Assembly (NCBI RefSeq): GCF_028641065.1
Contig: NC_073386.1
Location: 55,118,001 to 55,182,000, forward strand
Origin: Leucoraja erinacea
Lineage: Eukaryota
Reading direction: 5' to 3'
Length of the DNA stretch: 64,000 nt
Below are positions 5,641 through 63,648 of the stretch, in pieces. Under the pieces are notes generated by a model. It worked only from the letters and a program-made list of their open reading frames with translations, searched no databases and was not told the origin of the DNA. Each line of letters opens with the position of its first letter. The stretch's first letter is position 1. The translations under genes were made by a program, and so were the position numbers.

Positions 5641-7292
5641 CTATATTGCTTTTATGCATACACAAATAAAACACAAATATAACAATGAAACATACAACAA
5701 TGCAGTGAAACATACAACAGTGCAGCGGGGGGTTCAGTTTACAATTAATGATGCAGTATACAGAACTATTTTCTTATTAAAATATTTTCCAATAACTTAC
5801 ATTATTGTCAATAAATTTATACAGTGTTGATGTCTTTATTTCTATACCTAATCCATTTTTCCCATTTTCCGTTAAACTCGTCTTCTTTCACTCTTAGAGA
5901 ATCTGTCATTTTCTCCATGACAAATATTTCCTGTACTATGTCTAACCATTGTCTAAGTCTGGCTGCAAGCCAGTTTCTTGTAATGGCCTTTCTGTTAACT
6001 GTGAGTAGGATTTTAACCAAGTAATGATCTTCCTTTAGCACCACTGTAGTTATATTACCCGGGTATAAATTGGAACACTTTGTGGAGACTATATATCCTA
6101 ATACCTCCATTAATACTGAATTCACTCTGTCCCAAAATGGTTCTATTTATGGGCAACCCCAGAAGATATGTGCATGATTTGCATCTGTTTGGCCACATTG
6201 CCTCCAGCATGTTTGCTGCCTTAGAATTTGCTTGTTTTTTATGTTAGGCGTAATAAAGAAACAAATCAAATCAAAGTTTCCAATTAAATTCTCTCCATTT
6301 TTGTGAATTAGTGGATGTCTGTAGTGTTACAAACATATGATGCCATTCTTCTTCTGAGATTGTGCTGTTCAATTCCTTTTCCCACTTAAATGTTACATAA
6401 AATGTAGTTTGAGCTTGACATTTCATTAAACTATGATAAAGTTTAGAAATAACCCTTGATGTTTTTTGATGATACACATTAACTATCGCTTCTACCACTG
6501 GATTCTTTTCTTTAAAAAAAAAAAAAATTATTTATTAGAAGTAAGTACAATAATGTGGCATCTTTTTTCAGGTGCCAAATATATATTGGCATGTTACATT
6601 TTATGTACAGCTTCCTTTTTTTTATAATGAAAGAGAGAAAGAGAGACTAGATAATAGAGAATGGAAAAACGTGATGTATAGCATGTGAAAAAGAAAAAGG
6701 AAGAGAGAGAAAGTGAGGAAAAGAAGTGAAAAAAAATGAGAGAGAACGAGAAAATAGGAGATAGGAGATAAGTATTTATATTCTTGACCATCTCTCACCC
6801 AGTCCTGAAACAGTTATTTTTTACGATTTTGTTGCACCATATGCTTCCAAGAAGTCAATAAATGGAGACCAACTCGTTAAGAATTGGTCTGGTTTATCTG
6901 TTAGGAGGAATCGCATTTCTTCAAGATGTGCTGTGTCCAACATATTTATAATCCACATTTTAAGAGTTGGTATGAGTGTATTTTCCCAAAATTTAAGTGG
7001 ATTCTGTTCTTCTAGTGCCTCCCTTTTTACTTTTTTAACTGACATAATCTCTCAGTTGGAGGTATCTAAACAAGTCTTGGTTCCGAAGTGCAAATCTATC
7101 CTTCAAATCTTGAAAACTTCTTAGGTCTCCATTTTCAGTAATAGTACAAATTGCAGTCATTCCTTTCTCCATCCACTCTTTAAATGTTGAGTCATACATC
7201 CCTAGTTTTAATTCATTATCCAAAGCTATCCATCTTAAAACTTTTTGTTGTTTATTCAGTTTAAGTTGTCTTCTTAAAGGGCCTATTTTCAT
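5640..7292 (-). mobile_element. L1/Tx1-clade LINE 3' fragments (nested)
   Basis: CWRQCG...HIFWGCP zinc-finger C-terminus; a second L1 tail at ~6513-6995 is flanked by a TGGATTCTnTTCTT direct repeat. Confidence 0.8.
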
Positions 7293-7775
7293 GCTGTGTC
7301 TCTAAACCAAACTAAACACATTGTTATTATTGTTTTACAAGACATTGGTGAGGCCACATTTAGAATATTGTGTACAGTTTTGGTTACACTGTTATAGGAA
7401 AGGTTTTGTTAAGCTGGAAAGGGTGCAGAGAAGATTTACAAGGATGTTGCCAGATCTCAAGGGCCTGAGCTATGGGGATAGGTTGAGCAGGCTTTACTCC
7501 TTGGCATGCAGGAGGATGAGGGGTGATCTAATAAGACCATGAGAGGAATAAATTGGGTAAATGCACAATAGTTTACCCAGAGTAGGGAAATCAAGAACCA
7601 TAAGTTTAATGTGAGGGAAGGGAACGATTTAATGGGTACCTGAAGGGCTCTTTTTTACTGAAATGGTGGTAGGTATATGGAACGCGCTGCCAAAAGAGGT
7701 AGTTGGGGCAGGTACTATCATAACCTTTAAAAAACATTTGGACAGGTACATGGATAGGATTGATTTAGAAGGATA

Positions 7776-9334
7776 CTAGACTAAGTGGGACCAGAGGGCT
7801 AGTATGGACATTGTGGGTCGAGTGGATTCTTGGGCTGGCAGCTCAGTCACTCAGGCCTGGTGGGCTGGCAGCTCAGTTACTCAGGCCTGGTGGGCTGGCA
7901 GCTCAGTCACTCAGGCCTGGTGGGCTGGCAGCTCAGAAACTGCCAGATATTCTGCCCAAAACAGGTGAGAGACTCTGTGAGAGAGGGTGGATAAATCAAT
8001 TTTAGACATTTTTCATCTTTTTCTGCAGATCACAGCAATGAAGGAGGAAAGTCTATCCTGGCCTGGATCTCACAGGGAGCCAATGAAGGGAGGGAGAAAA
8101 GTACTGGGGTGAGGTTTAATACATGCAGGGGGAATACTTACTGATGGCCCGAAGGGACTCCTCCTGGACTAGTACAGGCCCGATGGGTCGAAGGAGCTCT
8201 TAAAAAAAAATGTGTGAAATCTCAGTGAAAGGCACGTTTTCTGGACTTTTCCAGGCCTGACACGGGCCTTTTGGGCCAAAATACTCCTCCTGCATTTTGG
8301 GCAAAAAGGACTCTTTTCTCAGCTAATAGGGACATTGTGGGCCAAAATTAGTGGTTTCAGGCAGGCCAAAAAAATGATTTAATTTCATTTCCATTTCATT
8401 TCAAGCACAGGGCAAGCCAAACAGCTCATTGCATTTTCATTTCATTTCCATTTTCATTGCAGTTTCAAGCACAGGGCAGGTCGAATAGTTCATTGCATTT
8501 TCATTTCATCTCCATTGCTATTGCAGTTTCAAGCACAGGGCAGGCCAAGCCAAACAGCTCATTGCATTTTCATTTCATTTCCATTGCCATTGCAGTTTCA
8601 AGCACAGGGCAGGGCAGGCCAAGCCAAACACCTCATTGCATTTTCATTTCATTTCCATTGTCATTGCAGTTTCAAGCACAGGGCAGGGCAGGCCAAGCCA
8701 AACACCTCATTGCATTTTCATTTCATTTCCATTGCCATTGAAGTTTCAAGCACAGGGCAGGCCAAGCCAAACAGCTCATTGCATTTTCATTTCATTTCCA
8801 TTGTCATTGCAGTTTCAAGCACAGGGCAGGGCAGGCCAAGCCAAACACCTCATTGCATTTTCATTTCATTTCCATTGCCATTGAAGTTTCAAGCACAGGG
8901 CAGGCCAAGCCTAACAACTCATTTCATTTTCATTAAGGGCTAACAAATCATTTATTGCAAGTACATTGCAGACTCACAGTACAGTTGATTCACAGCCTAG
9001 AATGAGAATGTGGCCTCTCCCTCACGATCTTGCAGAGTGACTGAGTCATGTTCAGGCATCCTGGGTTTTATAGTCCTGCCTCCCCCCCCCCCCCCCACCG
9101 CAAGGGGCGTTACCTTAATCATGGTGATTGACAGGTGAGAGGATCTCAAGGTTTTTTAAACACTCATGACTTTTTTATTTTTCATCGATGGGAAAAATCC
9201 TCGGGGCCTGCTCAGCAGAGGAGGACTGTGAGTAAAATGGCCCCAAAATCATAGCGATATATGGTTGTTTTTTTCTAAAATCAATATAGAGCGCAGACAG
9301 GAAGAGGTCAAGATGAGACTTTTAATTATATAGA
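7776..9334 (-). mobile_element. Non-autonomous Helitron with internal tandem repeats
   Basis: 5' TCTATATAATTAAAAGTCTCATCTTG, 3' GGTCCCACTTAGTCTAG; inserted between A and T of a CR1 3' end (ggata|tgggcc) with no TSD. Confidence 0.88.
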
Positions 9335-12300: not shown

Positions 12301-13121
12301 AAGAGTTGGTATGAGTGTATTTTCCCAAAATTTAAGTGGATTCTGTTCTTCTAGTGCCTCCCTTTTTACTTTTTTAACTGACATAATCTCTCAGTTGGAG
12401 GTATCTAAACAAGTCTTGGTTCCGAAGTGCAAATCTATCCTTCAAATCTTGAAAACTTCTTAGGTCTCCATTTTTAGTAACAGTACAAATTGCAGTCATT
12501 CCTTTCTTCATCCACTCTTTAAATGTTGAGTCATACATTTGTTTTAATTCATTATCCAAAGCTATTCATCTTAAAACTTTTTGTTGTTTATTCAGTTTAA
12601 GTTGTCTTCTTAAAGGGCCTATTTTCATGCTGTGTCTCTAAACCAAACTAAACACATTGTTATTATTGTTTTACAAGACATTGGTGAGGCCACATTTAGA
12701 ATATTGTGTTCAGTTTTGGTTACACTGTTATAGGAAAGATTTTGTTAAGCTGGAAAGGGTGCAGAGAAGATTTACAAGGATGTTGCCAGATCTCAAGGGC
12801 CTGAGCTATGGGGAGAGGTTGAGCAGGCTTTACTCCTTGGCATGCAGGAGGATGAGTGTTGATCTAATAGAGGTGTATAAGACCATGAGAGGAATAAATT
12901 GGGTAAATGCACAATATTTTACCCAGAGTAGGGAAATCAAGAACCATAAGTTTAATGTGAGGGAAGGGAAAGCTTTAATAGGTACCTGAAGGGCTCTTTT
13001 TTACTGAAATGGTGGTAGGTATATGGAACAAGCTGCCAGAAGAGGTAGTTGGGGCAGGTACTATCACAACCTTTAAAAAACATTTGGACAGGTACATGGA
13101 TAGGATTGATTTAGAAGGATA

Positions 13122-14467
13122 TTAGACTAAGTGGGACCAGAGGGCTAGTATGTACATTGTGGGTCGAGTGGATTCTTGGGCTGGCAGCTCAGTCACTCAG
13201 GCCTGGTGGGCTGGCAGCTCAGTCACTCAGGCCTGGTGGGCTGGCAGCTCAGAAACTGCCAGAAATTCTGCCCAAAACAGGTGAGAGACTCTGTGTGAGA
13301 GAGGGTGGATAAATCAATTTTAGACATTTTTCATCTTTTTCTGCAGATCACAGCAATGAAGAAGGAAAGTCTATCCTGGCCTGGATCTCACAGGGAGCCA
13401 ATGAAGGGAGGGAGAAAAGTACTGGGGTGAGGTTTAATACATGCAGGGGGAATACTTACTGATGGCCCGAAGGGACTCCTCCTGGGCTAGTACAGGCCAG
13501 GGTTAGTACTAGCCTCCTGGGCTAGTACAGGGTGGAAGGTGCTCTTTAAAAAAAAAGTGTGAAATCTCAGTGAAAGGCACTTTTTCTGGACTTTTCCAGG
13601 CCTGGCACGGGCCTTTTGGGCAAGAATACTCCTCCTGCACTAATACGGGCATTTTGGGCAAAAAGGACTATTTTCTCAGCTAATAGGGACGTTGTGGGCT
13701 GAAATTAGTGGTTTCAGGCAGGCCAAAAAAATGATTTAATTTCATTTCCATTTCATTTCAAGCACAGGGCAAGCTAAACAGCTCATTGCATTTTCATTTC
13801 ATTTCCATTTCCATTGCAGTTTCAAGCACAGGGCAGGTCGAATAGCTCATTGCAATTTCATTTCATCTCCATTGCTATTGCAGTTTCAAGCACAGGGCAG
13901 GCCAAGCCAAACAGCTCATTGCATTTTCATTTCCATTGCCATTGCAGTTTCAAGCACAGGGCAGGGCAGGCCAAGCCAAACACCTCATTGCATTTTCATT
14001 TCATTTCCATTGTCATTGCAGTTTCAAGCACAGGGCAGGCCTAACAACTCATTTCATTTTCATTAAGGGCTAACAAATCATTTATTGCAAGTACATTGCA
14101 GACTCACAGTACAGTTGATTCACAGCCTAGAATGAGAATGTGGCCTCTCACTCACGATCTTGCAGAGTGACTGAGTCATGTCCAGGCATCCTGGGTTTTA
14201 TAGTCCCCCCCTCCCCCCCCCCCCCCCCCCCCCCCCCCCCCGCAAGGGGCGTTACCTTAATCATGGTGATTGACAGGTGAGAGGATCTCAAGGTTTTTTA
14301 AACACTCATGACTTTTTTCGATAGGAAAAATCCTCGGGGCCTGCTCAGCAGAGGAGGACTGTGAGTAAAATGGCCCAAAAATTATAGCGATATATGGTCG
14401 TTTTTTTCTAAAATCAATATAGAGCGCAGGCAGGAAGAGGTCAAGATGAGACTTTTAATTATATAGA
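13122..14467 (-). mobile_element. Helitron, duplicated copy 2
   Basis: Same termini and flanks as 7776-9334; CTAG mutated to CTAA; fewer repeat units. Confidence 0.85.
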
Positions 14468-15460: not shown

Positions 15461-16056
15461 GGGACGTTGTGGGCCGAAATTAGTGGTTTCAGGCAGGCCA
15501 AAAAAAATGATTTAATTTCATTTCCATTTCATTTCAAGCACAGGGCAAGCCAAACAGCTAATTGCATTTTCATTTCATTTCCATTTCCATTGCAGTTTCA
15601 AGCACAGGGCAGGTCGAATAGCTCATTGCATTTTCATTTCATCTCCATTGCTATTGCAGTTTCAAGCACAGGGCAGGCCAAGCCAAACAGCTCATTGCAT
15701 TTTCATTTCATTTCCATTGCCATTGCAGTTTCAAGCACAGGGCAGGGCAGGCCAAGCCAAACACCTCATTGCATTTTCATTTCATTTCCATTGCCATTGA
15801 AGTTTCAAGCACAGGGCAGGCTAAGCCAAACAGCTCATTGCATTTTCATTTCATTTCCATTGTCATTGCAGTTTCAAGCACAGGGCAGGCCTAACAACTC
15901 ATTTCATTTTCATTAAGGGCTAACATTTATTGCAAGTACATTGCAGACTCACAGTACAGTTGATTCACAGCCTAGAATGAGAATGTGGCCTCTCCCTCAC
16001 GATCTTGCAGAGTGACTGAGTCATGTTCAGGCATCCTGGGTTTTATAGTCCTGCCT

Positions 16057-16096
<40 letters not shown>

Positions 16097-16330
16097 CAAG
16101 GGGCGTTACCTTAATCGTGGTGATTGACAGGTGAGAGGATCTCAAGGTTTTTTAAACACTCATGACTTTTTTATTTTTCATCGATGGGAAAAGTCCTCGG
16201 GACCTGCTCAGCAGAGGAGGACTGTGAGTAAAATGGCCCAAAAATCATAGCGATATATGGTCGTTTTTTTCTAAAATCAATATAGAGCGCAGACAGGAAG
16301 TGGTCAAGATGAGACTTTTAATTATATAGA
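15461..16330 (-). mobile_element. Helitron, partial copy 3 (5' part)
   Basis: Created by the internal 1.8-kb duplication. Confidence 0.8.
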
Positions 16331-19300
16331 TGGGCCAACCGCAGGCTGGTGGGATTAGTGCAGATAGGGCATGTTGGTTTCGTGGGCAAGTTGGGCTCAA
16401 GGGCCTCTCTGAATTACACTATGACTCTATGACTCTATATGGTCATGTAGAATTGCACAGTCATAAAGCATGAAAACAGGACATTCTGCCCACACGTCCA
16501 TGCCGACCAGACGGTTCCTATTCTGAATTAATCACTTTTGCCCTATTTGTAAAGGCAATCCAAGGGCTCATCTAAACACATTAAATGCTGTCAGCGACTC
16601 TGTTTCCACCACTCTCAGGGTGACAAAGGTCACCTCAGTTCACTTCCCCCTTACCCAAAATCTATGTCCTCTTGTTTTATCTACATAAGGTAGAGTCAAT
16701 GGTCTCGCCAATGTCTTGTACAACTGTAACATAACCTCCCAACTTCTATACCCAATACTCTGAAATGATGAAAGCAAATGTGCCAAAAGCCTCTTGACCA
16801 CCCTATTTACATGTGTAGCCACTTTCAAGGAACTATGTACATGTGTCTGATATAATTGAGGAATTGTCTCCTGCAGTGCCCTCTAACAATACCCTTCATG
16901 GCTTTGTATATCTCAATCATCTCTCCTTAATCCCCTCCATTCCAGTCTCTCTTCATAACTGAACTGCTCTATCCCAGGCAAATCCTGGAGAATTCCCTCC
17001 ACGCACTCTCCAGCGCCATTGCATCCTTCCTATAGCATGTTGACTGGAATTGCACGGAGTACCCCGGCTCAGATCTGACCAATATTGGAGCTTAACCTCC
17101 CTGTGCTTGTAGTCAAAGCCCTGACTCATGAAGGCCAGCATCCCATAGGCCTTCTTAACCACATTATCACCTGCTCAGCCACTTTCAAGGAGCTTTGGCC
17201 AAACAGACATATCCTTCAATTCCCCAGTGTACGCTAGGAGATTATCAATCATGGTATATGTCCTAGCGTTGTTAATAACCCCAAAATGCATCCCCTCTCA
17301 TTTAAGATTTTTTTATGATTTTTAATTTTTTTTTTTAATTTTATGATACTGCCTGTAAGGGAAATTCATTTTGTTGTCTCAAATTGAGACAATGACAATA
17401 AATTTAAATACAATACAATACAATACAAGATAGACACAAAAGTCTGGAGTAACTCAGCGGGACAGGCAGCATCTCCAGAGAGAAGGAATGGGTGATGCTT
17501 CGGGTCAAGACTCTTCTTCAGAACTCGACCCGAATCGTCACCCATTCCCTCTCTCCAGAGATGCTGCCTGTACCGCCGAGTTACTCCAGCATTTAGTGTC
17601 TAGTATGTTCGGTGTAAACCAGCATCTGCAGTTCCTTCCTACACATCACCTCTCATTTAGTTGCATTAATGCCCATCTATTTGCCGTTTCTCATACCATT
17701 TCACCTACTCATTGATATCGCCCTGCATCCTAGGATTACCATCTCCACTGTCAACAACTCAAATCTTTTCACCACCTGTGAATTTACCAACCATGTCTCC
17801 TACAGATCTTGCATCAGCTTGAAGGATTCCAGGTCCCACTATCTGATGACAGTGGATGATGAAGCAAAACTAGCTGCTTCATAGATAACAAAATTGAGTG
17901 AGTGATTGAGAACGAACTGAATTAAAGGGACTAAGGCGCTCACACAAATGAACAGCAGTTTTTATGTCTCTCTCGTGCTTCATACATCGTGGGATCACTA
18001 ACATGACGCAGAGAAAAAATCTATTACCTTACAGTGGAAAGCACCTGCACGGAAATCCTGAGATACACAGGGTTTTCCCAACAGCCGGAAACAGAGAGCT
18101 GGAGTAATATATACTCACAGTTAATTTATATAATGTATGAAATATTCATGAAGTAAGAAGCCCACTATAAGGGCTTTAAGAGAGAAGCATTTTCAAATAG
18201 ACCACCCCTGACTCTTCTTCTGGATGTGTCTCGATATCACTGCAGAGGTTGGCAGCAGTCATTGCAAGCCTAAGCATTCCTACAGCTATCTTCTGTAAGG
18301 ACTCCATTCTCCGCGTTCCTCAGTCTCTGCCATATTAGCTACCAGGCTTTCCAAATAGATATCTCTGATATCTTAATTTTCTTCCCTAATTGAGCAAAAC
18401 GGTCCCATCTGGAGTGGGAGTGGCTGTGGGGTATCGAAAGGAATCATAGAAAGTGCATCCTCACCCTAAAGTGCCGAGGACATGGTTGAAGGCTCAAACA
18501 TCCAGCACAAGCTCGAAAGGACTTTGGCTAGGCCGCATTTGGAGTATTGCATGCCATTACAGCAAAGATGTGGTGGCTCTGGAGAGGGTGCTGAGGATCT
18601 TTACCAGAATGCTGCCCGGATTAGAGTGTTTCAGCTACAGGCAAAGGTTGGATAATCTTGGATTATTTTCTCTGGAACGTCAAAGGTTGAGGGGAGACTT
18701 GATAGAAGTATATCAAATTATGAGAGGCATAGATAGGGCAAACGGTCAGAACATTTCTCCTGTGGTGGAAATATCCAGCTCTGGAGGGCATAAGGCGAGA
18801 GGGGGAAAGTTTAATGCAGATGTGCAGGGCAATTATTTTACACAGAAAGTGGTGGAGGCCTGGAACACATTGCCAGGGATGGTGGTGGAGGTTGATACGA
18901 TAGTGACATTGAAGAGGCTTTTGAATTGGCACATGGAAGTGAAGGGAATAGATAGATCGAATACAGGCAGATGAGATCAGTTTAGCTAGGCATCAAGTTC
19001 GGCATAAACATGGTGGGCCTAAGGGCCCATTCCTGTGGGCTCGTGTTGTTCTATGTTCTAAGACCCAGAGTGGAAGAAACTTAAGGGGGGATTTGACCAA
19101 AATCCTCATACCGGCGAGCTGGCCTGAGCGGCGGGCTGCCCGTAGCGGCGACTGCGGAGGGCTCTGGAGGCCCCAACCACGGGTGAACATCGAGGAAGAG
19201 ACTGGCTTTGGTGCCTTCCCTCACAGTGGGAAACTTTTGATTCTGCTGTGTGGGGATGTTTTATGTTTAAATCTAACGTGTTGTGTTCTTTATTTTAGTG

Positions 19301-24989: not shown

Positions 24990-26606
24990 CAGTGGCTTGC
25001 AAAAGTTTTCATACCCCTTGAATTTTTCCACATTTTGTCACGTTACAACCACAAACGTAAATGTATTTTATTGGGATTTTATGTGATAGACCAACACAAA
25101 GTGGCGCATAATTGTGAAGTGGAAGGAAAATGATACATGGTTTTCAAATTTTTTTACAAATAAAAAACTGAAAAGTGTGGCGTGCAAAAATATTTGGCCT
25201 CCCTGAGTCAACACTTTGCAGAACCACCTTTCGCTGCAATTACAGCTGCAAGTCTTTTGGGGTATGTCTCTACCAGCTTTGCACATCTAGAGACTGAAAT
25301 TTTTGCCCATTCTTCTTTGCAAAATAGCTCAAGCTCAGTCAGATTGGATGGAGAGCGTCTGTGAACAGCAATTTTCAAGTCTTGCCAGAGATTCACAATT
25401 GGATTTAGGTCTGTACTTTGACTGGGCCATTCTAACACATGAATATGCTTTGATCTAAACCATTCCATTGTAGTTCTGGCTGTATGTTTAGGGTCGTTGT
25501 CCTGCTGGAAGGTGAACCTCCGCCCCAGTCTCAAGTCTTTTGCAGACTCTAACAGGTTTTCTTCCAAGATTGCCCTGTATTTGGCTCCATCCATCTTCCC
25601 ATCAACTCTGACCAGCTTCCCTGTCCCTGCTGAAGAAAAGCATCCCCACAGCATGATGCTGCCACCACCATGTTTCACAGTGGGGATGGTGTGTTCAGGG
25701 TGATGTGCAGTGTTAGTTTTCCGCCACACATAGCGTTTTGCATTTAGGCCAAAAACTTCAATTTTGGTCTCATCTGACCAGAGCACCTTCCTCCACATGT
25801 TTGTTGTGTCCCCCACATGGCTTGTGGCAAACTGCAAACGGGACTTCTTATGGCTTTTTTTCAACAATGGCTTTCTTCTTGCCACTCTTCCATAAAGGCC
25901 CAATTTGTGGAGTGCACGACTAATAGTTGTCCTGTGGACAGATTCTCCCACCTGAGCTGTGGATCTCTGCAGCTCCTCCAGAGTTACCATGGGCCTCTTG
26001 GCTGCTTCTCTGATCAATGCTCTCCTTGCCCGGCCTGTCAGTTTAGGTGGACGGCCATGTCTTGGTAGGTTTGCAGTTGTGCCATACTCTTTCCATTTTC
26101 GGATGATGGATTGAACAGTGCTCCGTGAGATGTTCAAAGCTTGGGATATTTTTTTATAACCTAACCCTGCTTTAAACTTCTCCACAACTTTATCCCTGAC
26201 CTGTCTGGTGTGTTCCTTGGGCTTCATGATGCTGTTTGTTCACTAATGTTCTCTAACAAACCTCTGAGGCCTTCACAGAACAGCTGTATTGATACTGAGA
26301 TTAGATTACACACAAGTGGACTCTATTTACTAATTAGGTGACTTCTGAAGGCAATTGGTTGCACTGGATTTTATTTAGGGGTATCAGAGTAAAGGGGGCT
26401 GAATACTTTTGCACGCCACACTTTTCAGTTTTTTATTTGTAAAAAAATTTGAAAACCATGTATCATTTTCCTCCCACTTCACAATTATGCGCCACTTTAT
26501 GTTGGTCTATCACATAAAATCCCAATAAAATACATTTACGTTTGTGGTTGTAACATGACAAAATGTGGAAAAGTTCAAGGGGTATGAATACTTTTGCAAG
26601 CCATTG
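24990..26606 (-). mobile_element. Full-length Tc1 DNA transposon (Passport/IR-DR type)
   Basis: TA duplication at 24988-24989 and 26607-26608; CAGTGG-type ~210-bp TIRs with inner and outer direct repeats; the paralogous empty site at ~58801-58806 has a single TA. Confidence 0.97.
25208..26227 (-). CDS. Tc1 transposase, 339 aa, DD34E with catalytic E->V
   Basis: Uninterrupted ORF; GRPPK, WSDETK and QQDNDPKH motifs; SPDLNPIENLW appears as STDLNPIVNLW. Confidence 0.93.
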   Translation of the reverse strand: MKPKEHTRQVRDKVVEKFKAGLGYKKISQALNISRSTVQSIIRKWKEYGTTANLPRHGRPPKLTGRARRALIREAAKRPMVTLEELQRSTAQVGESVHRTTISRALHKLGLYGRVARRKPLLKKSHKKSRLQFATSHVGDTTNMWRKVLWSDETKIEVFGLNAKRYVWRKTNTAHHPEHTIPTVKHGGGSIMLWGCFSSAGTGKLVRVDGKMDGAKYRAILEENLLESAKDLRLGRRFTFQQDNDPKHTARTTMEWFRSKHIHVLEWPSQSTDLNPIVNLWQDLKIAVHRRSPSNLTELELFCKEEWAKISVSRCAKLVETYPKRLAAVIAAKGGSAKC

Positions 26607-29261: not shown

Positions 29262-32200
29262 TGAAGTGGGCGCATGTGCGGAGCTCTTCTAGAGTGTGCG
29301 CATGCGCAGGACATTTCTAGAGTGTGCGCATGCGCAGGACATTTCTAGAGTGTGCGCATGCGCAGGACATTTCCGGAGTGTGCGCATGTGCAAAGTATTT
29401 CGGGCGGGAAAAGCCTGCGGAATCAGCCATGTTTGCCGGACGTTTCTTAGTTTGTGTATTGCAGAAATAAGTTGCTTAAAGCTTAAATAAAGTTGTTAAT
29501 TACGAGTAGTGAAAGTTTCATTTATCTCACAACAATTTAAGCAACTTATCTCAGAAGTCAAACAGTCCGACTTGGGATGGAGAAGTTACTGAAACCACAA
29601 CGCTTGGATCTGGATCCCAACTCACCTACTGCTGCAAAGAATTGGAAGCACTGGCTTTGTATACTAAATAACTTCTTTGATGAGTGTGGCAATGATGCAC
29701 CAGACATACTCAAGACATTAATAAGCTTTGTCTCTTCTGATGTATATGATTACATAGAGGAATGTACAATTTATGATTCTGCTATTGATGTACTAAGCAA
29801 ACTCTTCGTTAAGACACCCAATGTGATATTCGCTCGACACCTCCTTGCTACTCGGAAACAAAAACCTGGTGAGTCACTTGATGAATTTTTACAAGAACTT
29901 CAAAGACTTAGTAAAGACTGTGCCTTCAAAGCAGTTAAGTCTGATCAATATCGACAGGAGACATTTATCAATGGTTTGGCATCGCCTTTAATACGACAGA
30001 GACTATTAGAACACAAAACCTTGGATTTACAGTCAGCTTACAATCAAGCTTACTCTTTAGACTTGACTCAGAAAAATTCAGATGCTTATGGCTCATCTAA
30101 TGTGTATTCTGCTGCAACTACTACAAAAGAATTTCACCCACGTACTAATATGGAGCAAACGGAAACAATTTCTACTGATAAAGGTGCCCTTGCTGCAGCA
30201 TATAATTATTCAAAAAGGAACTGTTACTTTTGCGGGGGTAATATTCATAAGAGAGAGACATGTCCTGCTCGAGAGGCAACTTGTAATAGTTGTGGCAAGA
30301 AGGGACATTATTCTAGAGTATGCAAGTCCAAAGCAACAACTAAAAGTGTGACTGCTGCCATATACACACCTTCTTTATGTGCAATTACAGCTGCATTTCC
30401 TCAGAGCTTGTCTCATGCAGCTACAACGGTATCCACCAATGGCCATACACTTAGTGTACTACTTGATTCTGGCGGTTCAGAAAGTTTTATAAGTGAACAA
30501 GTTGTGTCCCGACTAAATCTAACTATAATTCCTTCAAATAGAGAAATCTTGATGGCTCTGACACCTCTCAATACTCAAATTATAGGATCTTGTATTGTAG
30601 ACTTTATTCTGAACAAAACTCGCTATAAATCTGTATGTCTTGGTATTTTGAAAAATTTGTGTAGCGATATAATTCTAGGTCAGGATTTCCAGAAACTGCA
30701 CAGATCACTTCAAATAATGTATGAAGGAACTATGCCTGATCTTGTATTGTCAAAGCCACCAGTATTGTGTGGTCTTTCTGCTGCATCTGTTGAATGTCCT
30801 TCATTATTCACTAATTTATCCTCCAAGTGCAAGCCAATTGCTATAAAATCAACAATAGAGTGTGCGCATGCGCAGGACATTTCCGGAGTGCGCGCATACA
30901 AAATTAACTTCATCAGCACAGAAGTAACTAATCTTTTACAAGAAGGGATTATAGAACCCAGTTTTTCCCCTTGGAGGGCACAAATTGGGCACAAGTTGTC
31001 GTGGTTAAGGACCCCTTGGAGAGACATAGAAAGAGACTATGCATTGATTACTCTCAAACTATAAACCAGTTCACGGAGCTTGATGCATATCCATTACCTC
31101 GAATAGAAGAGATTATCAATACATTAGCTAAGTATAAGATATTCTCTACTTTTGAGTTAAAAAGTGCTTACTATCAAATTCCTCGGAAGGAATCAGAGAA
31201 GAAATACACTGCGTTTGAAGCAAATGGGAAATTATATCACTACTGCAGAGTTCCTTTTGGGGTAACTAATGGTGTGGCTGTTTTTTCAGAGAGAGATGGA
31301 CAAACTTGTTGAACAGGAAAACCTTAAAGATACTTTCCCTTATCTCGATAATATAACTATTGCAGGGAAAGACCAAGCTGAGCATGACGAAAATGTACAA
31401 TGGTTTTTAAATGTTGTACATTCTAAAAATCTAACATTAAATGAGGCAAAGTCAATAACGTCAGTATCATCGATTAATATTCTTGGTTATTGGGTTGGAA
31501 ATTATATAATCAACCCTGATCCAGAAAGACTCCACCCACTCCAAGAGATACCTGTTCCAGCAACATTAAACTCTCTACGAAGGGTTCTTTGTATGTTTAC
31601 ATATTATGCCAAATGGATACCAAATTTTTCTGACAAAATTCAACCTTTGATTAGAGCAAAATCTTTCCCCCTTGACTCTACAGCAATTGGTGCCTTTACT
31701 TCTTTAAAGAAACAATTGGAATCTGCGACATTACACGCCATCGATGAGGATCTCCCCTTTGTTGTTGAATGTGATGCCCCTGATTTAGCAGTATCAGCTA
31801 CATTAAATCAAGGAGGGCGACCAGTGGCTTTCATGTCTCGTACTCTCCAAGGTAGTGAATTGCACTACCCACCCGTCGAAAAGGAAGCTACAGCAATTAT
31901 TGAAGCAGATAGAAAATTGAGTCATTTCCTTGCTCGCCAGCACTTCACTTTGATAACAGTTCAGTGTTCAGTGGCTTTTATGCTGGATAATCGGAAACGA
32001 ACAAAGATTAAAAATAGTAAAATTCATGAATGGAGGATTGAATTATCCGCATATAGTTATTCAATTGAGTACTGCCCTGGTAAGGATAATGTTGCTCCGG
32101 ACACATTAACCCGAGCATTTTGTGCCTCTGTTCATTCTTCTGCACTCACTGATCTTCACAATGGGCTGTGTCATCCTGGAGTCACTCGTTTGTTACACTA

Positions 32201-33521
32201 TGTTCCTTTGCAAAAACTTACCTTTCTCTACAGAAGATGTGAAGATGACGTGTGCTTCATGTAGAATCTGTGCTGAATTAAAACCAAGGTTCTTCCGTCC
32301 TGAAGAAGGAAGATTGATCAAAGCTACTCAACCTATGGAACGATTGAGTATTGACTTCAAAGGGCCTGTACCATCCTCCTCTCAAAATGTTTATATACTT
32401 ACCTTAGTTGACGAATATTCGAGGTTTCCATTTGCCTTTCCTTGTCCAAATATTTCAGCTGCTACTGTTATCAAATGTTTAGATCAACTGTTTTCATTCT
32501 GTGGATTTCCAAGTTACATACATTCTGATAGGGGCACTTCATTCATGTCAAACGATTTAAAGGACTACCTTTCTAAGAGAGGAATTGCAACAAGTAAAAC
32601 AACACCATATCATCCTATTGGAAATGGTCAGGTTGAGAGGTATAACGGAATCATTTGGAAAGCAGTGAAACTGGCTTTAAAATCGAATGATATACCAGAT
32701 CAGCAGTGGGAATGTGTTCTACCAGATGCATTACACTCCATCAGATCTCCACTGTCAACTGCTACCAATACTACTCCACACGAGCAGTTCTTTAACTTCA
32801 AACGGCGTTCTTCTAGTGGTACTTCTCTGCCATCATGGTTGAATAGCCATGGGCCTGTGTTGCTTCATCGTTATGTCCGATTAAATAAGAATGAACCTAT
32901 TGTTGATGAAGTTGAACTGACTGATGTCAACCCTTCTTATGCAACTATCAAGTATCGGGATGGACGTCAGTCAACTGTCTCACTTCGTGACCTTGCACCA
33001 TGTCCATCTTCTCCATCAGCTCCGTCACTTCTTGATAACACTAATCGGGAACTTCCTGCAATACTTCCCGCATCCTCTATGGAAACTTCTACAAGAAATT
33101 CTAAAATTGAAAATCTAAATAACAATATGAGTGAAGTTGATGACCAAGCAATATATCTAGCCCCAGCTATTGAAACACCGGTATCTCCTGAGGCTCCAGT
33201 GCTGCGACGGTCATCAAGACGTATTAAACCTCCTGACCGTCTCAACTTATAAATAGGAGGGGAGAATGAAGTGAGCGCATGTGCGCATGTGCGGAGCTCT
33301 TCTAGAGTGTGCGCATGCGCAGGACATTTCTAGAGTGTGCGCATGCGCAGGACATTTCCGGAGAGTGCGCATGTGCGAAGTATTTCGGGCGGGAAAAGCC
33401 TGCGGAATCAGCCATGTTTGCCAGACGTTTCTGAGTTTGTGTATTGCAGAAATAAGTTGCTTAAAGCTTAAATAAAGTTAAGTTAATTACGAGTAGTGAA
33501 AGTTTCATTTATCTCACAACA
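29262..33521 (+). mobile_element. Full-length Gypsy (Ty3/Metaviridae) LTR retrotransposon
   Basis: TG...CA LTRs at 29262-29534 (273 bp) and 33267-33521 (255 bp); 5-bp TSD CATGG; PPT AGGAGGGGAGAA 33255-33266; order gag-PR-RT-RH-IN. Confidence 0.97.
29577..33252 (+). pseudogene. Gypsy gag-pol, broken by about 3 frameshifts
   Basis: Two CCHC-type knuckles, protease LLDSGG, RT (LDAYPLP, PFGVTNG, YLDN), RNase H (ECDA, EKEA), integrase (SIDFKGP, HSDRG, GQVERYN); frame switches near 30980, 31285 and 32200. Confidence 0.92.
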
Positions 33522-33809: not shown

Positions 33810-34420
33810 TATTCATTATCTCAAAACACAGCAACCCGAGGCGAACCTAAACTTGACTTTCCTACAAAATGTTATTCAAAGCACAACCTTTTTTACATAT
33901 TCCGGTAGAGATTTACCCCCTGGTGTCAAAAATCAGCTTAGCTGAAAATGGTGTGCTTTATTTCTTGAGTAATTAATAAAAATGTTCACAAATCCGATCC
34001 AATTTTCAATTCAAAACGCCCATTTGTTTTTAGTTTTTTTCGCTGATGACTTGACAATGGATCTTCCTGCCATCTGTTCGCGCTACGATTGGCGTCACCT
34101 CCCACCCCTCCCTCCTCCCCCCGTTGTTCAAACATCGCCCTGTTGACTGAAGATGTTCGCACGCTCGCGACTCAGCTCGGGCCCTGTACCCGGGAGCTTT
34201 GGTCAACGTCCGCTACCGCCCTCCCGCGAGCTGCCGCCCTCACCCCCATGAGCTGCCGCCCTCCCCCCCGCATGCTGCACCCCAACGCGAGCTGACGCCC
34301 ACCCCCCCCGCAATATTTGAACATTACAAAATCCAGCTGCCGTGAGGAGACGACCCCCCCGCGAGCTGCCGTGCAGTCACCCCCCCCCGCGAGCTCTTGA
34401 CTACAGGCCACCCGAAAATT
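33810..34420 (+). mobile_element. Helitron-family internal fragment
   Basis: Collinear similarity to 59700-59960 (gtagagatttacccc, gagtaattaat, ttcgctgatga, gtcacctccc). Confidence 0.55.
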
Positions 34421-34554
34421 AAACCGCGAGCTATGACAATTGGGGCTGTCATAGATTGTCGTAGCTTGTCGCCAGGTTAACGTAACTTGTCACTGGTGCT
34501 GACTTTGGTGAATTCCATTGTCCTAGTCGCTGGCAATCACCTAAAAATCACCTA

Positions 34555-35298
34555 AGTGTGACAGGCCCAGTGTACCAGGCCCCAGGCCCAGTGTGACTGG
34601 CCCAGTGTGACAGGCTCAGTGTGACAGGCCCAGTGGGTAGGCCCAGTGTGACAGGCCCCAGAGTGACAGGCCCAGTGGGTAGGCCCAGTGTGACAGGCCC
34701 AGTGTGACAGGCCCAGTGTGACAGGCCCAGTGTGACAGGCCCAGTATGACAGGCCCAGTGGGACAGGCCCAGTGGGACAGGCTCAGTGTGACAGGCCCAG
34801 TGTGACAGGCCCAGTGTGACAGGCCCAGTGCAGTTTGACAGGCCCTCAGTGTGACAGGCCCAGTGTGACAGGCTCAGTGTGACAGGCCCAGTGACAGGAC
34901 AGGCCCAGTGTGACAGGCCCAGTGTGACAGGCCCAGTGTGACAGGCCCAGTGTGACAGGCCCAGTGTGACAGGCCCAGTGTGACAGGCCCAGTGTGACAG
35001 GCCCAGTGTGACAGGCCCAGTGTGGCAGGCCCAGGGGGACAGGCCCAGTGTGACAGGCCCAGTGGGACAGGCCCAGTGGGACAGGCCCAGGGGGACAGGC
35101 CCAGTGGGACAGGCCCAGTGTGACAGGCCCAGTGGGACAGGCCCAGTATGACAGGCCCAGTGGGCCGGCCCAGTGTGACAGGCCCAGTGTGACAGGCCCA
35201 GTGTGACAGGCCCAGTGTGACAGGCCCAGTGTGACAGGCCCAGTGTGACAGGCCCAGTGTGACAGGCCCAGTGTGACAGGCCCAGTGTGACAGGCCCT
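34555..35298. repeat. 14-bp minisatellite (AGTGTGACAGGCCC)n, about 53 units
   Basis: Direct inspection. Confidence 0.97.
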
Positions 35299-42730: not shown

Positions 42731-43160
42731 TCTATATTACTAAAACTCTGTTCTTGACCGGTTTCGGCTTTCTGTGCTGCAGTTTCCGAGAGTACGCCGC
42801 CACCTACGGCCGTCATTTTTGGCCACCTCACTCAGAGCCCCCCTCCGCCGCAGGTGTGCCGAGGATATTTCCCATCGATGAAAATTGACAAAGATATTAA
42901 TGTTTTTACAACATTCCCCATTCTCTCTGCTGCCCCTGCTGGAGGGAGGGGGAGCGACTATAAAACCAGGAAGTGGTGTGCCTCAATCAGTCTCTGCAAG
43001 TGGTGGTTGCCTCACTCAGAGCTTTGAATGACACTGACAAATGTCTACAGCACTGCGAGTACCCTTAATTTGGTTTGAAAATGAAAATATGGTTAGAGGT
43101 AAAAAAGCACTGCCTGCAAATAGTTGTTTGGGTTCGGGTTGAAGTAAAAAGGCACTCTTT
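42731..43160 (+). mobile_element. Helitron 5' fragment
   Basis: a|TCTATATTACTAAAACTCTGTTCTTGACC start; collinear with Helitron B/A sequence. Confidence 0.8.
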
Positions 43161-56134: not shown

Positions 56135-57667
56135 TCTGTCCCCTCACATGCCCCACACTGCCCTTGTCCCCACACTGTCCCCCTTGTCCCCACACTGTCC
56201 CTGTCCCCACACTGTCCCCACACTGTCCCTGTCCCCACACTGTCCCTGTCCCCACACTGTCCCCCACACTGTCCCTGTCCCCACACTGTCCCTGTCCCCA
56301 CACTGTCCCTGTCCCCACACTGTCCCCACACTGTCCCACACTGTCCCCACACTGTCCCTGTCCCCACACTGTCCTTGGCACGTTACTGTCTCCACATTGT
56401 CCCCACTGGCCCCACACTGTCCCTGTCCCCACACTGTCCCTGTTTTCCCCACACTGTCCCCACACTGTCACTGTCCCCACCCTGTCCCTGTCCCCACACT
56501 GTCCCTGTCCCCACACTGTCCCTATCCCCCCCCACACTGTCCCCACACTGTCCCTGTCCCCACACTGTCCCCCTGTCCCCTGACCCCACCTGTCCACACT
56601 GTCCCCACACTGTCCCTGTCCCCACACTGTCCCTGTCCCCACACTGTCCCTGTCCCCACTGTCTCTACTGTCCCCACACTGTCCCTGTCCCCACACTGTC
56701 CCCACACTGTCCCCACACTGTCCCCACACTGTCCCCACACTGTCCCTGTCCTGTCCCCACACTGTCCCCACACTGTCCCTGTCCCCACACTGTCCCTGTC
56801 CCCGTACTGTCTCCACATGGTTCCCACACTGTCTCCACAGTTCCTGTCCCCACATTGTCTGCACGTTATTCCCACACTGTCCCCACTGTCTCCACGCTGT
56901 CCCTGTCCCCACACTGTCCCTGTCCACTGTCCCCCCACTGTCTCCACACTGTCTCTGTCCACACTGTCCCACACTGTCCCTGTCCCCACACTGTCCCTGT
57001 CCCCACTGTCCCCACACTGTCCCTGTCCCCACACTGTCCCTGTCCCCACACTGTCCCCCCTCTCCCCCACTGTTTCCACACTGTCCCACACTGTCCCTGT
57101 CCCCACACTGTCCCTGTCCCCACACTGTCCCTGTCCCCACACTGTCCCTGGCCCCACACTGTCCTTGGCCCCACACTGTCTCCACATTGTTCCTGGCCCC
57201 ACACTGTCCCTGTCCCCACTGTCCCCAGACTGTTTCTGTCCACACTGTCCCCACACTGTCCCTGTCCCCACACTGTCCCTGTCCTGTTTCTGTCCACACT
57301 GTCCCCACACTGTCCTTGTCCCCACTGTGCCTGTCCCCCCACACTGTCCCCACACTGTCCCTGTCCCCACACTGTCCCTGTCCCCACACTGTCCCCACAC
57401 TGTCCTGTCATCACTGTCCTCACACTGTCCCCACACTGTCCCTGTCCCCACACTGTCCCTGTCCCCACACTGTCCCTGTCGCCACACGGCCCCCACACTG
57501 TCCCTGTCTACACTGTCCCTGTCCCCACACTGTCTCTACACTGTCCCCACACTGTCCCTGTCCCCACACTGTCCCTGTCCCCACACTGTCCCTGTCCCCA
57601 CACTGTCCCCACACTGTCCCTGTCTCTCCACTGTCCACACACTGTCCCCACACTGTCCCTACACTGT
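56135..57667. repeat. C-rich minisatellite (CTGTCCCTGTCCCCACA / CTGTCCCCACA)n
   Basis: Direct inspection; mixed 17/12/11-bp units. Confidence 0.97.
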
Positions 57668-59647: not shown

Positions 59648-62337
59648 TCTCTATACTTATAAAACTCTGATCTTGGGTCTTATTTGGGTGTGTGTTTGTG
59701 TGTAATCACATCTTTGCAAAAAAAATTCCAGTAGACATATTTCCCCTGGAGTGCAAAATCGCCTTATCTGCAAATTTCATGCTTTATTTGTCGAGTAATT
59801 AATGAAAATGTTCAAAAATCTGACAAAACATTTAATTTAATAATGACTGTCTTTCGCTGATGATGTCATAATGGGTCTGCAAGCCTTTTTCCTTGCGCTG
59901 CAAGTGACGTCACCTCCCAAAAATTCCCTCCTCCCCCCCCGTCATTCAAAAGACGGAGATGAAGTCGGCCCTGGATTGAAGGTCATAGCTGTAGACTGCA
60001 GCATACCAACTTGTGTTCCTTTGGTCGATGCCTGCCCACCCACCCGCTTGCCCGCCCGCCCCGTCACTGCCTCGCCCCCACGCTGCCTAGCTCGGCGCAG
60101 GGTAGGGAGGTTGCTGTTATTCTCTGCCTCTGTAGCTGCCCTCTCTCTGCCTCTGCCCTCTGCCTCTGCCCGCTAGCTCTGTAGCTGCCCTCTCTCTGCC
60201 TCTGCCCTCAGTCCTCTACCTCCTTCCCTCTGCCCTTGCCCTCTGCCCCTGGACTCTGCCCTCTGTCTCTGCCCCTGCCCTCTCTACACCCCTCCCTCTC
60301 TCTCTCTCTAGCTGGGAGCATTGGCTTGTTTGAAGTTGAAAGGCTATCTACTTACTATACTGCAAATCTCTGTGGCTTGGGAGCTTTGGCTTGAAGTTGA
60401 AAGGCAATCATTCTTACTGCTCAGATGGTGGCTTTGGGTGCTTTGGCTTGAAGTTGACAAAAGAGATATTAAAAAATCACCATTCTCTCTGCTGCACCTG
60501 CTGGAGGGAGGGGGAGGGACTATAAAACCAGGAAGTGGTGTGCCTCAATCAGTCTCTGCAAGATGGATGAAGCCAATGGTCATGTCTCTATGAGCTCTGA
60601 ATAACACTGAACAAATGTCTACACAACTGTGTACCCTTAATGTGGTTTGAAAATGAAAATATGGGTTGTTTGAAGTAAAAAGGCACTGCCTGCAAATGGT
60701 GGCTTGGGAGCTTTGGATTCAAGTTGAAAGGCACTACTTACTGCAAATGGTGGCGGGTGATTTGCTTGAAGTTGAAAGGCACTACTTACTGCACATGGTG
60801 GCTTGGGTGCTTTGGCTTGATGTTGAAAGGCACTACTTACTGCAAATGGTGGCATGAAGTTGAAAGGCACTACTTACTGCAAATGGTGGCATGGGTGCAT
60901 TGGCTTGAAGTTGAAAGGCACTACTTACTGCAAATGGTGGCTTGGCAGCTTTGGCTTGAAGTTGAAAGGCAATTCTTACTGCAAATGGTGGCTTGGGTGC
61001 TTTGGCTTGAAGTTGAATTGCACTATTTACTGCAAATTGTGGCTTAGGAGCTTTGGCTTGAAGTTGAAAGGTAATTCTTACTGCAAATGGTGGCTTGGGA
61101 GCTTTGGCTTGAAGTTTAAAAAAAATCACCATTCTCTCTGCTGCACCTACTGGAGGGGAAGGACTATAAAACCAGGAAGTGGTGTGCCTCAGTCTCTGCA
61201 AGATGGATGAAGCCAATGGTCACGTCTCTATGAGCTCTGAATAACACTGAACAAATGTCTACACAACTGTGTACCCTTAATGTGGTTTGAAAATGAAAAT
61301 ATGGGTTGTTTGAAGTAAAAAGGCACTGCCTGCAAATGGGTGTTTGGGTGCTTTGGCTTGAAGTTGAAAGGCACTTCTTACTGAAAATGGTGGCTTGGAT
61401 GCTTTGGCTTGTAGTTGAAAGGCCCTACTTACTGCAAATGGTGGCATGAAGTTGAAAGGTACTACTTACTGCAAATGGTGGCTTGGGTGCTTTAGCTTGA
61501 AGTTGATAGGCACTACTTACTGTTATGATGGTGGCTTGGGTGCTTTGGCTTGAAGTTAAAAGGCACGACTGCAAATGCACTTACTTCCTGTTTGCACTGT
61601 ATATTGATTTTAGATAAAATGCTACCACTTATGGCTGTGATTTTTGGCCATCTTACTCAGTCCCCCCTCTGCTGTGCAGGTGCAGATAATGCTTCCCATC
61701 AATGAAAAATAAAAGTGTTAGTGTTTAAAAATTGTTGAGAATCTCTCTCCTGTCAATCACGCCCTGAAAGCCGCACCCCTTCCGGTGGGAGCTGGGAGGG
61801 ATTTTAAAACCCGGAAGTGTGGGTGTGGCTCAGTCTCTGCAAGATGGGGGAGGGAGAAGTCACGACTGTCTGAGCTGTGAATCAACTGAACACTCTGAAT
61901 GTCTACTGAACTGTGAGTTTGGTGTTTTGTGTGGTTTTATGGTGGTTTCACCCTGCATGAAATGGTATGAAGCTGCATTTGAATTTTGGTGGCCTTCGAC
62001 CCTGCTTGAAGTGGTATGAAACTGCACTTGAATTTGGTGGCCTTGCACCCTGCTGAAAGTGGTAAGAAACGTGGATTTGAATTTGGTGGCCTTGCACCCT
62101 GCTTGAAATGGAATTTCAAGGAATAGTCATGAGTCAACTGCCAGCCCACCAGCCGTGCGTGAGCTGCCAGCAGATCAGGCTTGAGGGACTGAGCTGCCAC
62201 CCCAAGAATCCATACCAGCACTCCAGAAAGCCCCCCCACTACCACCAATATTGGAATTGGTGGAGAGGTGGAATATTGCGTCGGGGGACCAGCCCTCCCG
62301 TGTGAACATGGGACCCAACGGGTCCCACTTAGTCTAG
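59648..62337 (+). mobile_element. Non-autonomous Helitron A
   Basis: a|TCTCTATACTTATAAAACTCTGATCTTG start; hairpin TGGGACCC-aac-GGGTCCCA 62309-62327, then CTAG 62334-62337; ~54-bp internal repeats. Confidence 0.88.
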
Positions 62338-63648
62338 TCTATATTACTAAATCTCTGATCTTGACCGCTTTTGGCCGACTGTGCTGCGATTTTCGATAGA
62401 ACGCCGCCACCTACGGCCGTCATGTTTGGCCACCTCGCTCAGAGCCCCCCTCCGCCATATCAGTGTGGAGGATTTTTTCTGTCGATGACAAATTAGAGGG
62501 ATATTAATGTTTTTACAAAATTCCCCATTCTCTCTGCTGCCCCCACTGGCGGCAGGGGGAGGGACTATAAAACCAGGAAGCGTCTCTGCCAGACCAGGAA
62601 GCGAGAGGGTCACAGTTCTCTGAGCTGCGAATAACACTGAACGCACGTCTAATCCACGGTGAGTCCCCTCGATGCGCCTGTAAAGTGGCTGCAGTCCTTT
62701 TTAAAAAGTTGGTGTTCACAAAATGAATTTTGTTTGTTGGGTGTCTGCAGCCCAATTGCCTTGCCTTGGCTTTTAAAATCGTTGCAGGGAGGGATTATAA
62801 AACCCAGAAGTGTGGGTGTGGCTCAGTCTCTGCAAGATGGGGGAGGGAGAAGACTCGACTGTCTGAGCTGTGAATCAACTGAACTGTGAGTGTCTACTGA
62901 ACTGTGTGTGGTTTACATGTGGTGTTTTGTGTGGTTTAATGGTGGTTTCCCCCTGCTTGAAATGGTGTGAAACTGCATTTGAATGTGGCCTTGCACCCTG
63001 GCATGAAATGGTATGAAACTGCATTTAAATTGGGTGGCCTTGAGCCTTGCATGAAATGGTAGGAAACTGCACTTGAATTTGGTGGCCTTGCATCCTGCTT
63101 GAAATGGCATGAAACAGCACTAGCATTTGGTGGCTTTGCACCCTGCTTGAAGTGGCATGAAACTGCACTTGAATATGGTGGCCTTGCACCCTGCTTGAAG
63201 TGGTCAGAAACTACATTTGAATTTGGTGGCCCTGCACCATGCTTGAAGTGGTAGGAAAGTGCACTTGAATTTGGTGGCCTTGCACCCTGCGTGAAGTGGC
63301 AGGAAACTGCACTTGAGTTTGGTGGCCCTGCACCATGCTTGAAGTGGTAGGAAACTGCATTTGAATTTGGTGGCCCTGCCCCATGCATGAAGTGGTATGA
63401 AACTGCACTTGAATTTGGTGGCCTTGCACCCTGCTTGGCATGGAATTTCAAGGAATAGCCGTGTCAACTGCCAGCCCACCAGCCGTGAGTGAGCTGCCAG
63501 CACATCAGGCTTTAGTGACTGAGCTGCCACACCAAGAATCCATTTGGCCCCCAATGTCCCTACTAGCCCCCTAGAAACCAGTCCCTTCAGCCCACAACAC
63601 CCATACTAGCACTCCAGAACCCCCCCACACGGGTCCAACTTAGGCTAG
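62338..63648 (+). mobile_element. Non-autonomous Helitron B, fused head-to-tail to A
   Basis: TCTATATTACTAAATCTCTGATCTTG starts directly after A's CTAG; ends ...GGGTCCAACTTAGGCTAG|t; ~48-bp internal repeats. Confidence 0.85.

Follow-up and report, generated by a model that had tools for sequence, protein, structure and literature searches.

Bat Helitrons are known to carry promoters: in the available parts of the reports, HelibatN3 traps exons in HeLa cells and in three bat transcripts (PMC4778049), and promoter-carrying bat Helitrons reach higher copy numbers (PMC4224331). A promoter of its own ahead of the ATG is presumed for the Xenopus element Heli1Xen1 (available text of PMC12001565), and head-to-tail Helitron junctions have already been described (available text of PMC5876387). 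Here, we analyzed a 64,000-nucleotide stretch of the Leucoraja erinacea genome (contig NC_073386.1, positions 55,118,001 to 55,182,000, forward strand; hereafter, the window), in which two joined Helitrons, E1 and E2, carry repeated modules that each resemble a core promoter followed by a short exon and a splice donor. Our preferred reading, to which we assign a probability of roughly 0.75, is that the module is the promoter and noncoding exon 1 of the family's own transposase gene, RepHel, inherited by deletion derivatives of the coding elements.

Genome-wide distribution of the module

Exact searches of a 2.19-Gb genome assembly with two disjoint module patterns returned 3,553 and 4,052 matches (control patterns, 1 and 0), which gives at least 7,605 modules with an intact TATA box, type C (see below) lying outside this count; the exact type A 20-mer alone has 4,052 copies. 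We extracted 167 distinct modules from 210 fetched loci and the window. Five subtypes account for 150 of them (A, 61; D, 30; C, 29; B, 23; E, 7), and the remaining 17, which are deletion variants and singletons, were excluded from the consensus comparison. The series of TATA, Initiator (Inr), and GTGAGT is intact in 73/210 fetched loci, many of which overlap and were picked for intactness. Of 60 loci picked by their order along the genome, 51 could be measured, and in 39 of these the 5′ TC and the first TATA are 229 to 248 bp apart; the commonest multimodule layouts are A-B, A-A, and A-A-B. Multimodule elements hold tandem duplications of module plus array together with internal left-end remnants of other subfamilies, and one 3.2-kb locus (L006) carries as many as five modules, exceeding the one to three per element that the first-pass annotation had counted. 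A type A sub-lineage has AAT^GTAAGT in place of ACT^GTGAGT, with the caret marking the splice boundary (L216, decayed, and L222, L227, L228, L230, L232, L235, L238, and L239), and the array after its donor is of a different, ∼30-bp type.

The module precedes RepHel in coding relatives

The genome contains 78 matches to PF14214. An open frame on C1290 carries Helitron_like_N, REP, and PIF1 regions and aligns with Helraiser (PDB 7LCC) at an E value of 1e-224 over residues 55 to 1514. Decayed RepHel copies on C1, C6, and C8 have both ends in common with E1 and E2, and the copy on C2 has the left end only; all four exceed the PF14214 cut-off and hold RepHel remnants 55 to 80% identical to the C38 frame. 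An autonomous partner with Rep HUH, Pif1 helicase, and common ends is therefore present. In RepHel-bearing relatives, the module is on the coding strand, ∼230 to 260 bp in from the 5′ TC; minisatellite arrays come next, and then AACTGAAATTGT(C/G)TTTAG^G, a branch- and acceptor-like site 15 to 20 nt ahead of the RepHel ATG, whose sequence suggests a branch point and splice acceptor. Because coding relatives have the module upstream of both the RepHel ATG and this acceptor-like site, we interpret it as the probable RepHel promoter and exon 1.

Exact acceptor 21-mers occur 98 times genome-wide (control, 0). Of 29 RepHel upstream stretches, 17 could be aligned, five of them C38-type and without the acceptor site; of the other 12, which are not of the C38 family, 11 retain the acceptor AG irrespective of their upstream sequence. 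We found the module in 10/29 upstream stretches (nine by hidden Markov model [HMM], L207 by eye) and within 6 kb at 16/41 further acceptor sites, one of these D calls being weak and some modules being D/E intermediates. All 26 RepHel-linked modules belong to subtype D, E, or C.

Under the preferred reading, transcription by RNA polymerase II would begin at the Inr A, 30 nt past TATA, and the 62- to 79-nt exon would be spliced over the arrays to the RepHel acceptor, yielding an ATG-free 5′ untranslated region (UTR). Deletion derivatives that retain the first few hundred bases past the left end would carry the module along, and modules would stack through array recombination and through fusion of neighboring elements during rolling-circle copying. 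ATGs have accumulated in the exon of the noncoding high-copy types, and a motif is broken in most copies of the window. The bulk of the inserted copies are therefore likely passengers in decay; a smaller share might serve host genes as alternative first exons, a use that is plausible for some copies.

RepHel copies vary in other respects. An open-frame family (G000 C38:11.40 Mb, C600, C1290, C74, and C779), with frames of 1,290 to 1,739 amino acids (aa), is 95 to 100% identical between copies over most of the protein, gave no module match upstream, and has a 13-nt deletion at the acceptor site; it is possibly recently active. The acceptor-ATG block is preceded by unrelated 5′ regions in L196, L198, L201 to L203, L208, and L210, and in L201, L203, and L197 a Helitron right-end hairpin without CTAG abuts the block, with a GTGAG donor-like word upstream. 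This suggests exchange of RepHel 5′ ends and promoters through fusion with an upstream element. In an amplified deletion derivative lying directly behind the acceptor, the start of RepHel (MSGK/N) runs in frame into the helicase past Walker A (VRGQGDVAIAV, ∼residue 1331); this derivative occurs at 32/40 acceptor sites (L241 to L280), with a longest frame of 303 aa (L244), and could be either a neutral deletion or the source of a repressor-like truncated protein.

Conservation across subtypes and among inserted copies

In the canonical layout of such promoters, the first T of TATA lies 29 to 31 nt ahead of the Inr A, and a GTRAGT donor follows a short exon. The consensuses of all five subtypes have this TATA-Inr and GTRAGT arrangement while being only 54 to 81% identical to one another. 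TATA-to-Inr distances are 30, 30, 30, 29, and 30 nt across a divergent spacer, exon length ranges from 62 to 82 nt, and GTGAGT is invariant, as against 1/20 of the next intron bases. With the columns used for module finding omitted, Inr and donor are invariant at 10/11 columns compared with 23/108 others (P = 8e-6) or with 22/65 ungapped exon and spacer columns (P = 5e-4); the subtypes are related, so these P values are indicative only. The proposal that order and spacing persist across diverged subfamilies thus holds for TATA, Inr spacing, and donor and fails for the ETS and YY1 motifs that had been included in it. The YY1 core, CAAGATGG, occurs in 41/49 type A exons, 1/18 of B, 0/29 of D, 0/23 of C, and 0/6 of E; type C lacks the ETS core (0/23). 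Type E carries only CAGACGG or CAGATGG at the YY1 place, and CpG counts are 1 in A versus 12 in E; CAAGATGG in type A may be a product of decay.

The consensus exons of D, C, and E contain no ATG, and those of A and B contain 3 and 4; among individual copies, 23/29 D and 18/23 C exons are ATG-free, while all 49 A and all 18 B copies that have a donor contain 2 to 5 ATGs. Such a gain is the pattern expected of a 5′ UTR freed from constraint once RepHel was lost. The best donors (AAG^GT and ACG^GT) are those of the RepHel-linked types D and E.

Among inserted copies, we compared decay at the core with decay at other bases, using non-CpG positions and excluding the query copies (L001, L071, L101, and L102). 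Slower core decay was not found in type D (6/522 versus 189/7792; P = 0.07) or type C (21/503 versus 316/8773; P = 0.46), and core decay in type A was higher rather than lower (15/517 versus 54/3818; P = 0.02); as percentages, these are 1.2 versus 2.4, 4.2 versus 3.6, and 2.9 versus 1.4, respectively. These comparisons give no sign of class-wide purifying selection on inserted copies of these three types.

Two joined Helitrons in the window

E1 and E2 are canonical (Helitron1) non-autonomous Helitrons, as had been surmised for the carriers of the module. The elements, their parts, and other family members in the window are as follows; coordinates are window positions.

59648..62337 (+): E1, a composite non-autonomous Helitron (A^TC...CTAG^T) with three different left-end segments in series
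59648..60320 (+): left end from another, module-free Helitron family, akin to 33899-34132; this is the outer 5′ end of E1
60330..60457 (+): partial 51/57-bp array ahead of the first module of E1
60496..60631 (+): type A module with G-run, TATA 60521, CAGGAAG, Inr A 60551, and CAAGATGG; a 2-nt deletion removed the donor
60690..61120 (+): 51-bp minisatellite array, in the position of intron 1 if transcribed
61140..61271 (+): type A module, tandem duplicate of module plus array, with TATA 61165, Inr moved to 26 nt, and the same donor deletion
61310..61570 (+): second 51-bp array in E1
61584..61777 (+): internal remnant of a type C Helitron left end, first ∼30 nt gone; fusion point of two elements
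61778..61918 (+): type B module with TTTAAAA 61803 (mutated TATA), CCGGAAG, Inr A 61832, and donor ACT^GTGAGT 61913
61949..62111 (+): 48/49-bp array in E1
62309..62337 (+): right end of E1, an 8-bp stem hairpin at 62309-62327 (−8.6 kcal/mol, z −2.8) plus CTAG
62338..63648 (+): E2, a non-autonomous Helitron head-to-tail after E1, with CTAG at 63645-63648 and a decayed right-end hairpin
62541..62664 (+): type E module (a RepHel-linked type) with TATA 62566, Inr deleted, and donor ACG^GTGAGT 62659
62771..62891 (+): type B module with TATA 62796, mutated ETS core, Inr A 62825, and donor ACT^GTGAGT 62886
62954..63437 (+): 48-bp array in E2, 10 copies
42731..43156 (+): family member truncated at the 3′ side, module type A2, TATA 42959, donor now GCGAGT
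7776..9334 (−): complete type C element with TATA 9072, Inr at 30 nt, donor 8977, and a 69- to 74-bp array

Both E1 and E2 begin with TC, which follows an A or the preceding CTAG, and finish with CTAG ahead of a T; the fetched loci have the same terminal TC and CTAG. The hairpin stem of E1 stops 10 nt before the final base, and the E2 hairpin has a z score of +0.8. Across the fetched loci, A stands ahead of TC in 61/66 distinct flanks and T follows CTAG in 36/36, five of the latter being head-to-tail joints. We considered and rejected a Helentron or Helitron2 identity: the 1,520-aa RepHel frame contains no endonuclease family, and the ends are TC and CTAG. Inspection of open reading frames (ORFs) indicates no protein-coding capacity in E1 or E2. 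The remnant at 61584-61777 is 74 to 77% identical to the left ends of the type C RepHel copies L193 and L207, and module plus array was tandemly duplicated inside E1 (60313-60936 versus 60994-61577). A search for a RepHel copy linked to the outer left end of E1 gave weak matches only.

The motif positions of the first-pass annotation were recovered, namely, TATAAAA at 60521, 61165, 62566, 62796, 42959, and 9072(−), TTTAAAA at 61803, and GTGAGT at 61913, 62659, 62886, and 8977(−). The Inr is shifted to 26 nt in the 61165 module and deleted in the 62566 module. Arrays mostly lie after the donor, again as described, and one also lies ahead of the 60521 module. None of the five modules within 60480-62900 has all five motifs (0/5); the modules at 60521 and 61165 lost the donor through CTGTGTACC in place of the CTGTGAGTACC of genome copies. 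The pattern TATAAAA-N20-24-TCAST occurs 6 times in the window versus 0.17 expected from shuffles, these 6 being homologous copies; a fairer, single-origin estimate of chance comes from simulated 400-nt stretches, of which 3/20,000 contain TATA, an Inr with its A 28 to 31 nt on, and GTRAGT. The type C element was locally duplicated, and the further TATA copies at 14202(−) and 16047(−) are duplications of the 9072 region, not independent insertions. Local multikilobase duplications (5322-8722 versus 10659-14064, 95%; 8503-10310 versus 15510-17308, 94%) leave the type C module triplicated.

RNA reads on a type A copy

We compared one type A copy with four raw RNA runs from organisms A and D, which are not shown to be the window species; 1 to 6% of each run was read, and the RNA is fragmented and pools thousands of copies, so a few active copies could escape detection. 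Each run gave 567 to 1,372 reads on the copy, in both directions, and depth was no lower ahead of TATA than over the exon, as in read-through. In these fragmented, copy-pooled reads, starts did not pile up at the Inr (1581), none of the 24 loose ends listed falls at the donor (1659; 392 more exist), and we saw no junction from the donor to a host exon. Among indexed data sets containing the window stretch, none is recorded as RNA, which counts neither for nor against transcription. Poly(A)/poly(T) loose ends occur in both single-cell runs at L022:1685 (64 and 65 reads) and L022:1510 (35 to 37 reads), in A/T-rich tracts, and likely stem from internal priming at both places. We rejected the poly(A) ends at L022:1685 as evidence of a processed transcript, as they lie in an A-rich tract past the donor and likely reflect internal priming.

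Weighing the interpretations

Several observations weigh against a native RepHel promoter. No module is within reach in 19/29 RepHel upstream stretches and at 25/41 acceptor sites, every module-linked RepHel copy found is broken, and the RepHel family with long open frames (C38, C600, C28, and C29; also C732) gave no upstream module match by HMM. The invariance of TATA is circular, since TATA was the search anchor, and the RepHel start site and splice are themselves predictions from sequence. Types A and B keep TATA, Inr, and donor although they were never found with RepHel, which passive inheritance predicts poorly. Finally, many D, E, and C elements contain, between module and acceptor, another promoter-like block that has a separate donor (26/30 D loci). 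It could be the real RepHel promoter, either as the main or as an alternative one.

This second block sits ∼750 to 1270 bp inside the left end of L071 to L100 and is also found in the C8 copy (L067:7221-7380) and in L192. It consists of CAAGATGGCGGC together with 1 to 4 tandem 36-bp units containing ATGACGTCATTTCCGG, and then the donor G^GTAAGT. We take CAAGATGGCGGC to be YY1-like. The reverse complement of ATGACGTCATTTCCGG is one base off an overlapping ETS-CRE motif (available text of PMC3464117).

The persistence of the core in types A and B is addressed by selection in cis, a tentative supplement to the preferred reading that we regard as possible though doubtful: after RepHel loss, A and B would have kept or stacked promoter and donor because transcription at the left end makes a copy a better rolling-circle template. 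Types A and B make up 0/26 RepHel-linked modules despite the 4,052 exact A 20-mers, and they differ by 17 to 32% at other sites and at 0/11 Inr/donor positions while their exons gained ATGs (B versus E, 25/84 noncore differences; B versus C, 23/71; chance of 0/11, 0.02 and 0.01, respectively). The donor of the A sub-lineage changed to GTAAGT and is still a consensus donor (8 modules), and in the available text of PMC4224331 the bat Helitrons with promoters are the more numerous ones. The A-versus-E comparison (15/87 noncore differences, 0/11 at Inr/donor, chance 0.12), however, is not significant by itself, autonomous masters of A and B may be lost or unsampled, a donor-less subfamily also spreads (type B2, 4/6 sampled without a donor), some A sub-lineages have a shifted Inr, and module-free Helitron families are present. 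Joining this idea with promoter exchange gives a wider scenario that we likewise hold to be unlikely, in which noncoding lineages keep and stack a working unit because left-end transcription aids copying, the RepHel cassette beginning with its acceptor swaps promoters by fusion with any upstream element that provides a left end and a donor, and >7,600 first exons able to feed host genes arise as a by-product.

An improbable alternative is that the main function of the family is to disperse active cassettes of promoter and exon 1, which would splice into host genes and be maintained by host selection. The abundance of modules with intact TATA (at least 7,605) and the intact series in 73/210 overlapping, chosen loci would accord with it, as would the coverage of the element by reads of all four RNA runs; for HelibatN3, such an outcome has been proven both in HeLa cells and in bat transcriptomes, according to the available text of PMC4778049. 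Against this, the core of inserted copies decays no more slowly than other bases, the type A reads from fragmented, pooled RNA are bidirectional and deep ahead of TATA with no Inr pile, no window module is complete (0/5), and 2 to 5 ATGs in A and B exons would probably hamper translation of a host ORF. We consider it quite improbable that the module originated as the promoter and first exon of a host gene, was captured like NUBPL in HelibatN3, and later came to drive RepHel. The RepHel acceptor-ATG block follows several unrelated 5′ regions, which implies that promoters were swapped and came from somewhere, but a host source was not found in searches giving best matches only among thousands of copies, the place of the module is fixed in subtypes just 54 to 59% identical, and RepHel-linked exons have neither ATG nor coding part. 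We give very little credence to the motifs being look-alikes, produced by chance or by binding of transposase or host factors near the left end, with no role in transcription. The RNA reads on the type A copy gave no sign of activity, conservation does not extend to the ETS and YY1 cores, and the motifs were chosen after the fact; yet TATA-Inr spacing is fixed at 29 to 30 nt across a divergent spacer, an invariant donor is matched by a pre-ATG acceptor, the exon is ATG-free in coding lineages only, and simulated stretches matched in just 3/20,000 cases.

Other features of the window

No non-repeat ORF of ≥150 aa is notable in the window, exons having been searched for no further than that. An uninterrupted 343-aa frame at 25208-26239 (−) presumably encodes a Tc1/mariner-like transposase. 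A long terminal repeat (LTR) retroelement-like insertion at 29265-33521 (+) has terminal repeats 95% identical and frames in three pieces, which we take to be gag/pol-like. At 33899-35297, a left end akin to the outer end of E1 leads into a 14-bp array with 50 copies. The C-rich minisatellite at 56136-57667, 1.5 kb long, weakly resembles it in reverse.

Implications

Expression of animal Helitron transposases is poorly described in the literature that we found, and this clade offers a testable gene model: TATA and Inr, a noncoding exon, an array-filled intron, and an acceptor just ahead of the ATG. It also separates two constraints, as the ATG-free UTR was lost in noncoding lineages and TATA, Inr, and donor were retained; the question, raised in bats, of why amplification is greater in Helitrons with promoters can thereby be tested directly. 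Even a small share of active copies among the 7,600+ modules would supply alternative first exons specific to this lineage; should none be active, the module would be an ordinary transposon-promoter fossil.

Comparison with known systems

In the literature searched, we found neither this family nor a RepHel 5′ UTR built from TATA, Inr, exon, and donor; Repbase/Dfam, subscription journals, and supplements lay outside that search, and the family may be catalogued there. As far as the available descriptions go, the window family resembles other Helitron1 elements (Helraiser, 7LCC; Heli1Xen1, PMC12001565) in its 5′ TC, AT-rich left end, 3′ hairpin, and CTAG, as well as in its A/T target, head-to-tail copies, and minisatellite-filled non-autonomous derivatives. 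It differs from them, on the same descriptions, in having an acceptor-like site and a separate noncoding TATA-Inr exon ahead of the RepHel ATG. The wheat Xuan-Feng Helitrons are similar in that a promoter belonging to the autonomous element lies between its left end and the start codon and that non-autonomous partners exist; the promoter of Feng8, in contrast, was assayed with a reporter and is heat responsive, and the available text does not mention a TATA-Inr-exon-donor cassette (PMC13286980).

The closest likeness is to HelibatN3 of Myotis, a high-copy non-autonomous element with promoter, first exon, and donor near its left end (available text of PMC4778049 and PMC4224331), and downstream exon trapping would be possible in principle for the window family as well. 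The suggestion that the modules represent an undescribed kind of system is therefore not sustained, given that HelibatN3 already spreads a promoter and donor that trap host exons, as reported in the available part of PMC4778049. In that account, the HelibatN3 cassette is a captured NUBPL promoter with six codons and a splice donor, and its activity is demonstrated. For the window family, the lack of a host source in our searches and the place of the module before RepHel point to a native origin rather than to promoter capture. Unlike the HelibatN3 cassette as described there, its predicted cassette lies upstream of RepHel, is noncoding there, and is stacked up to 5 times.

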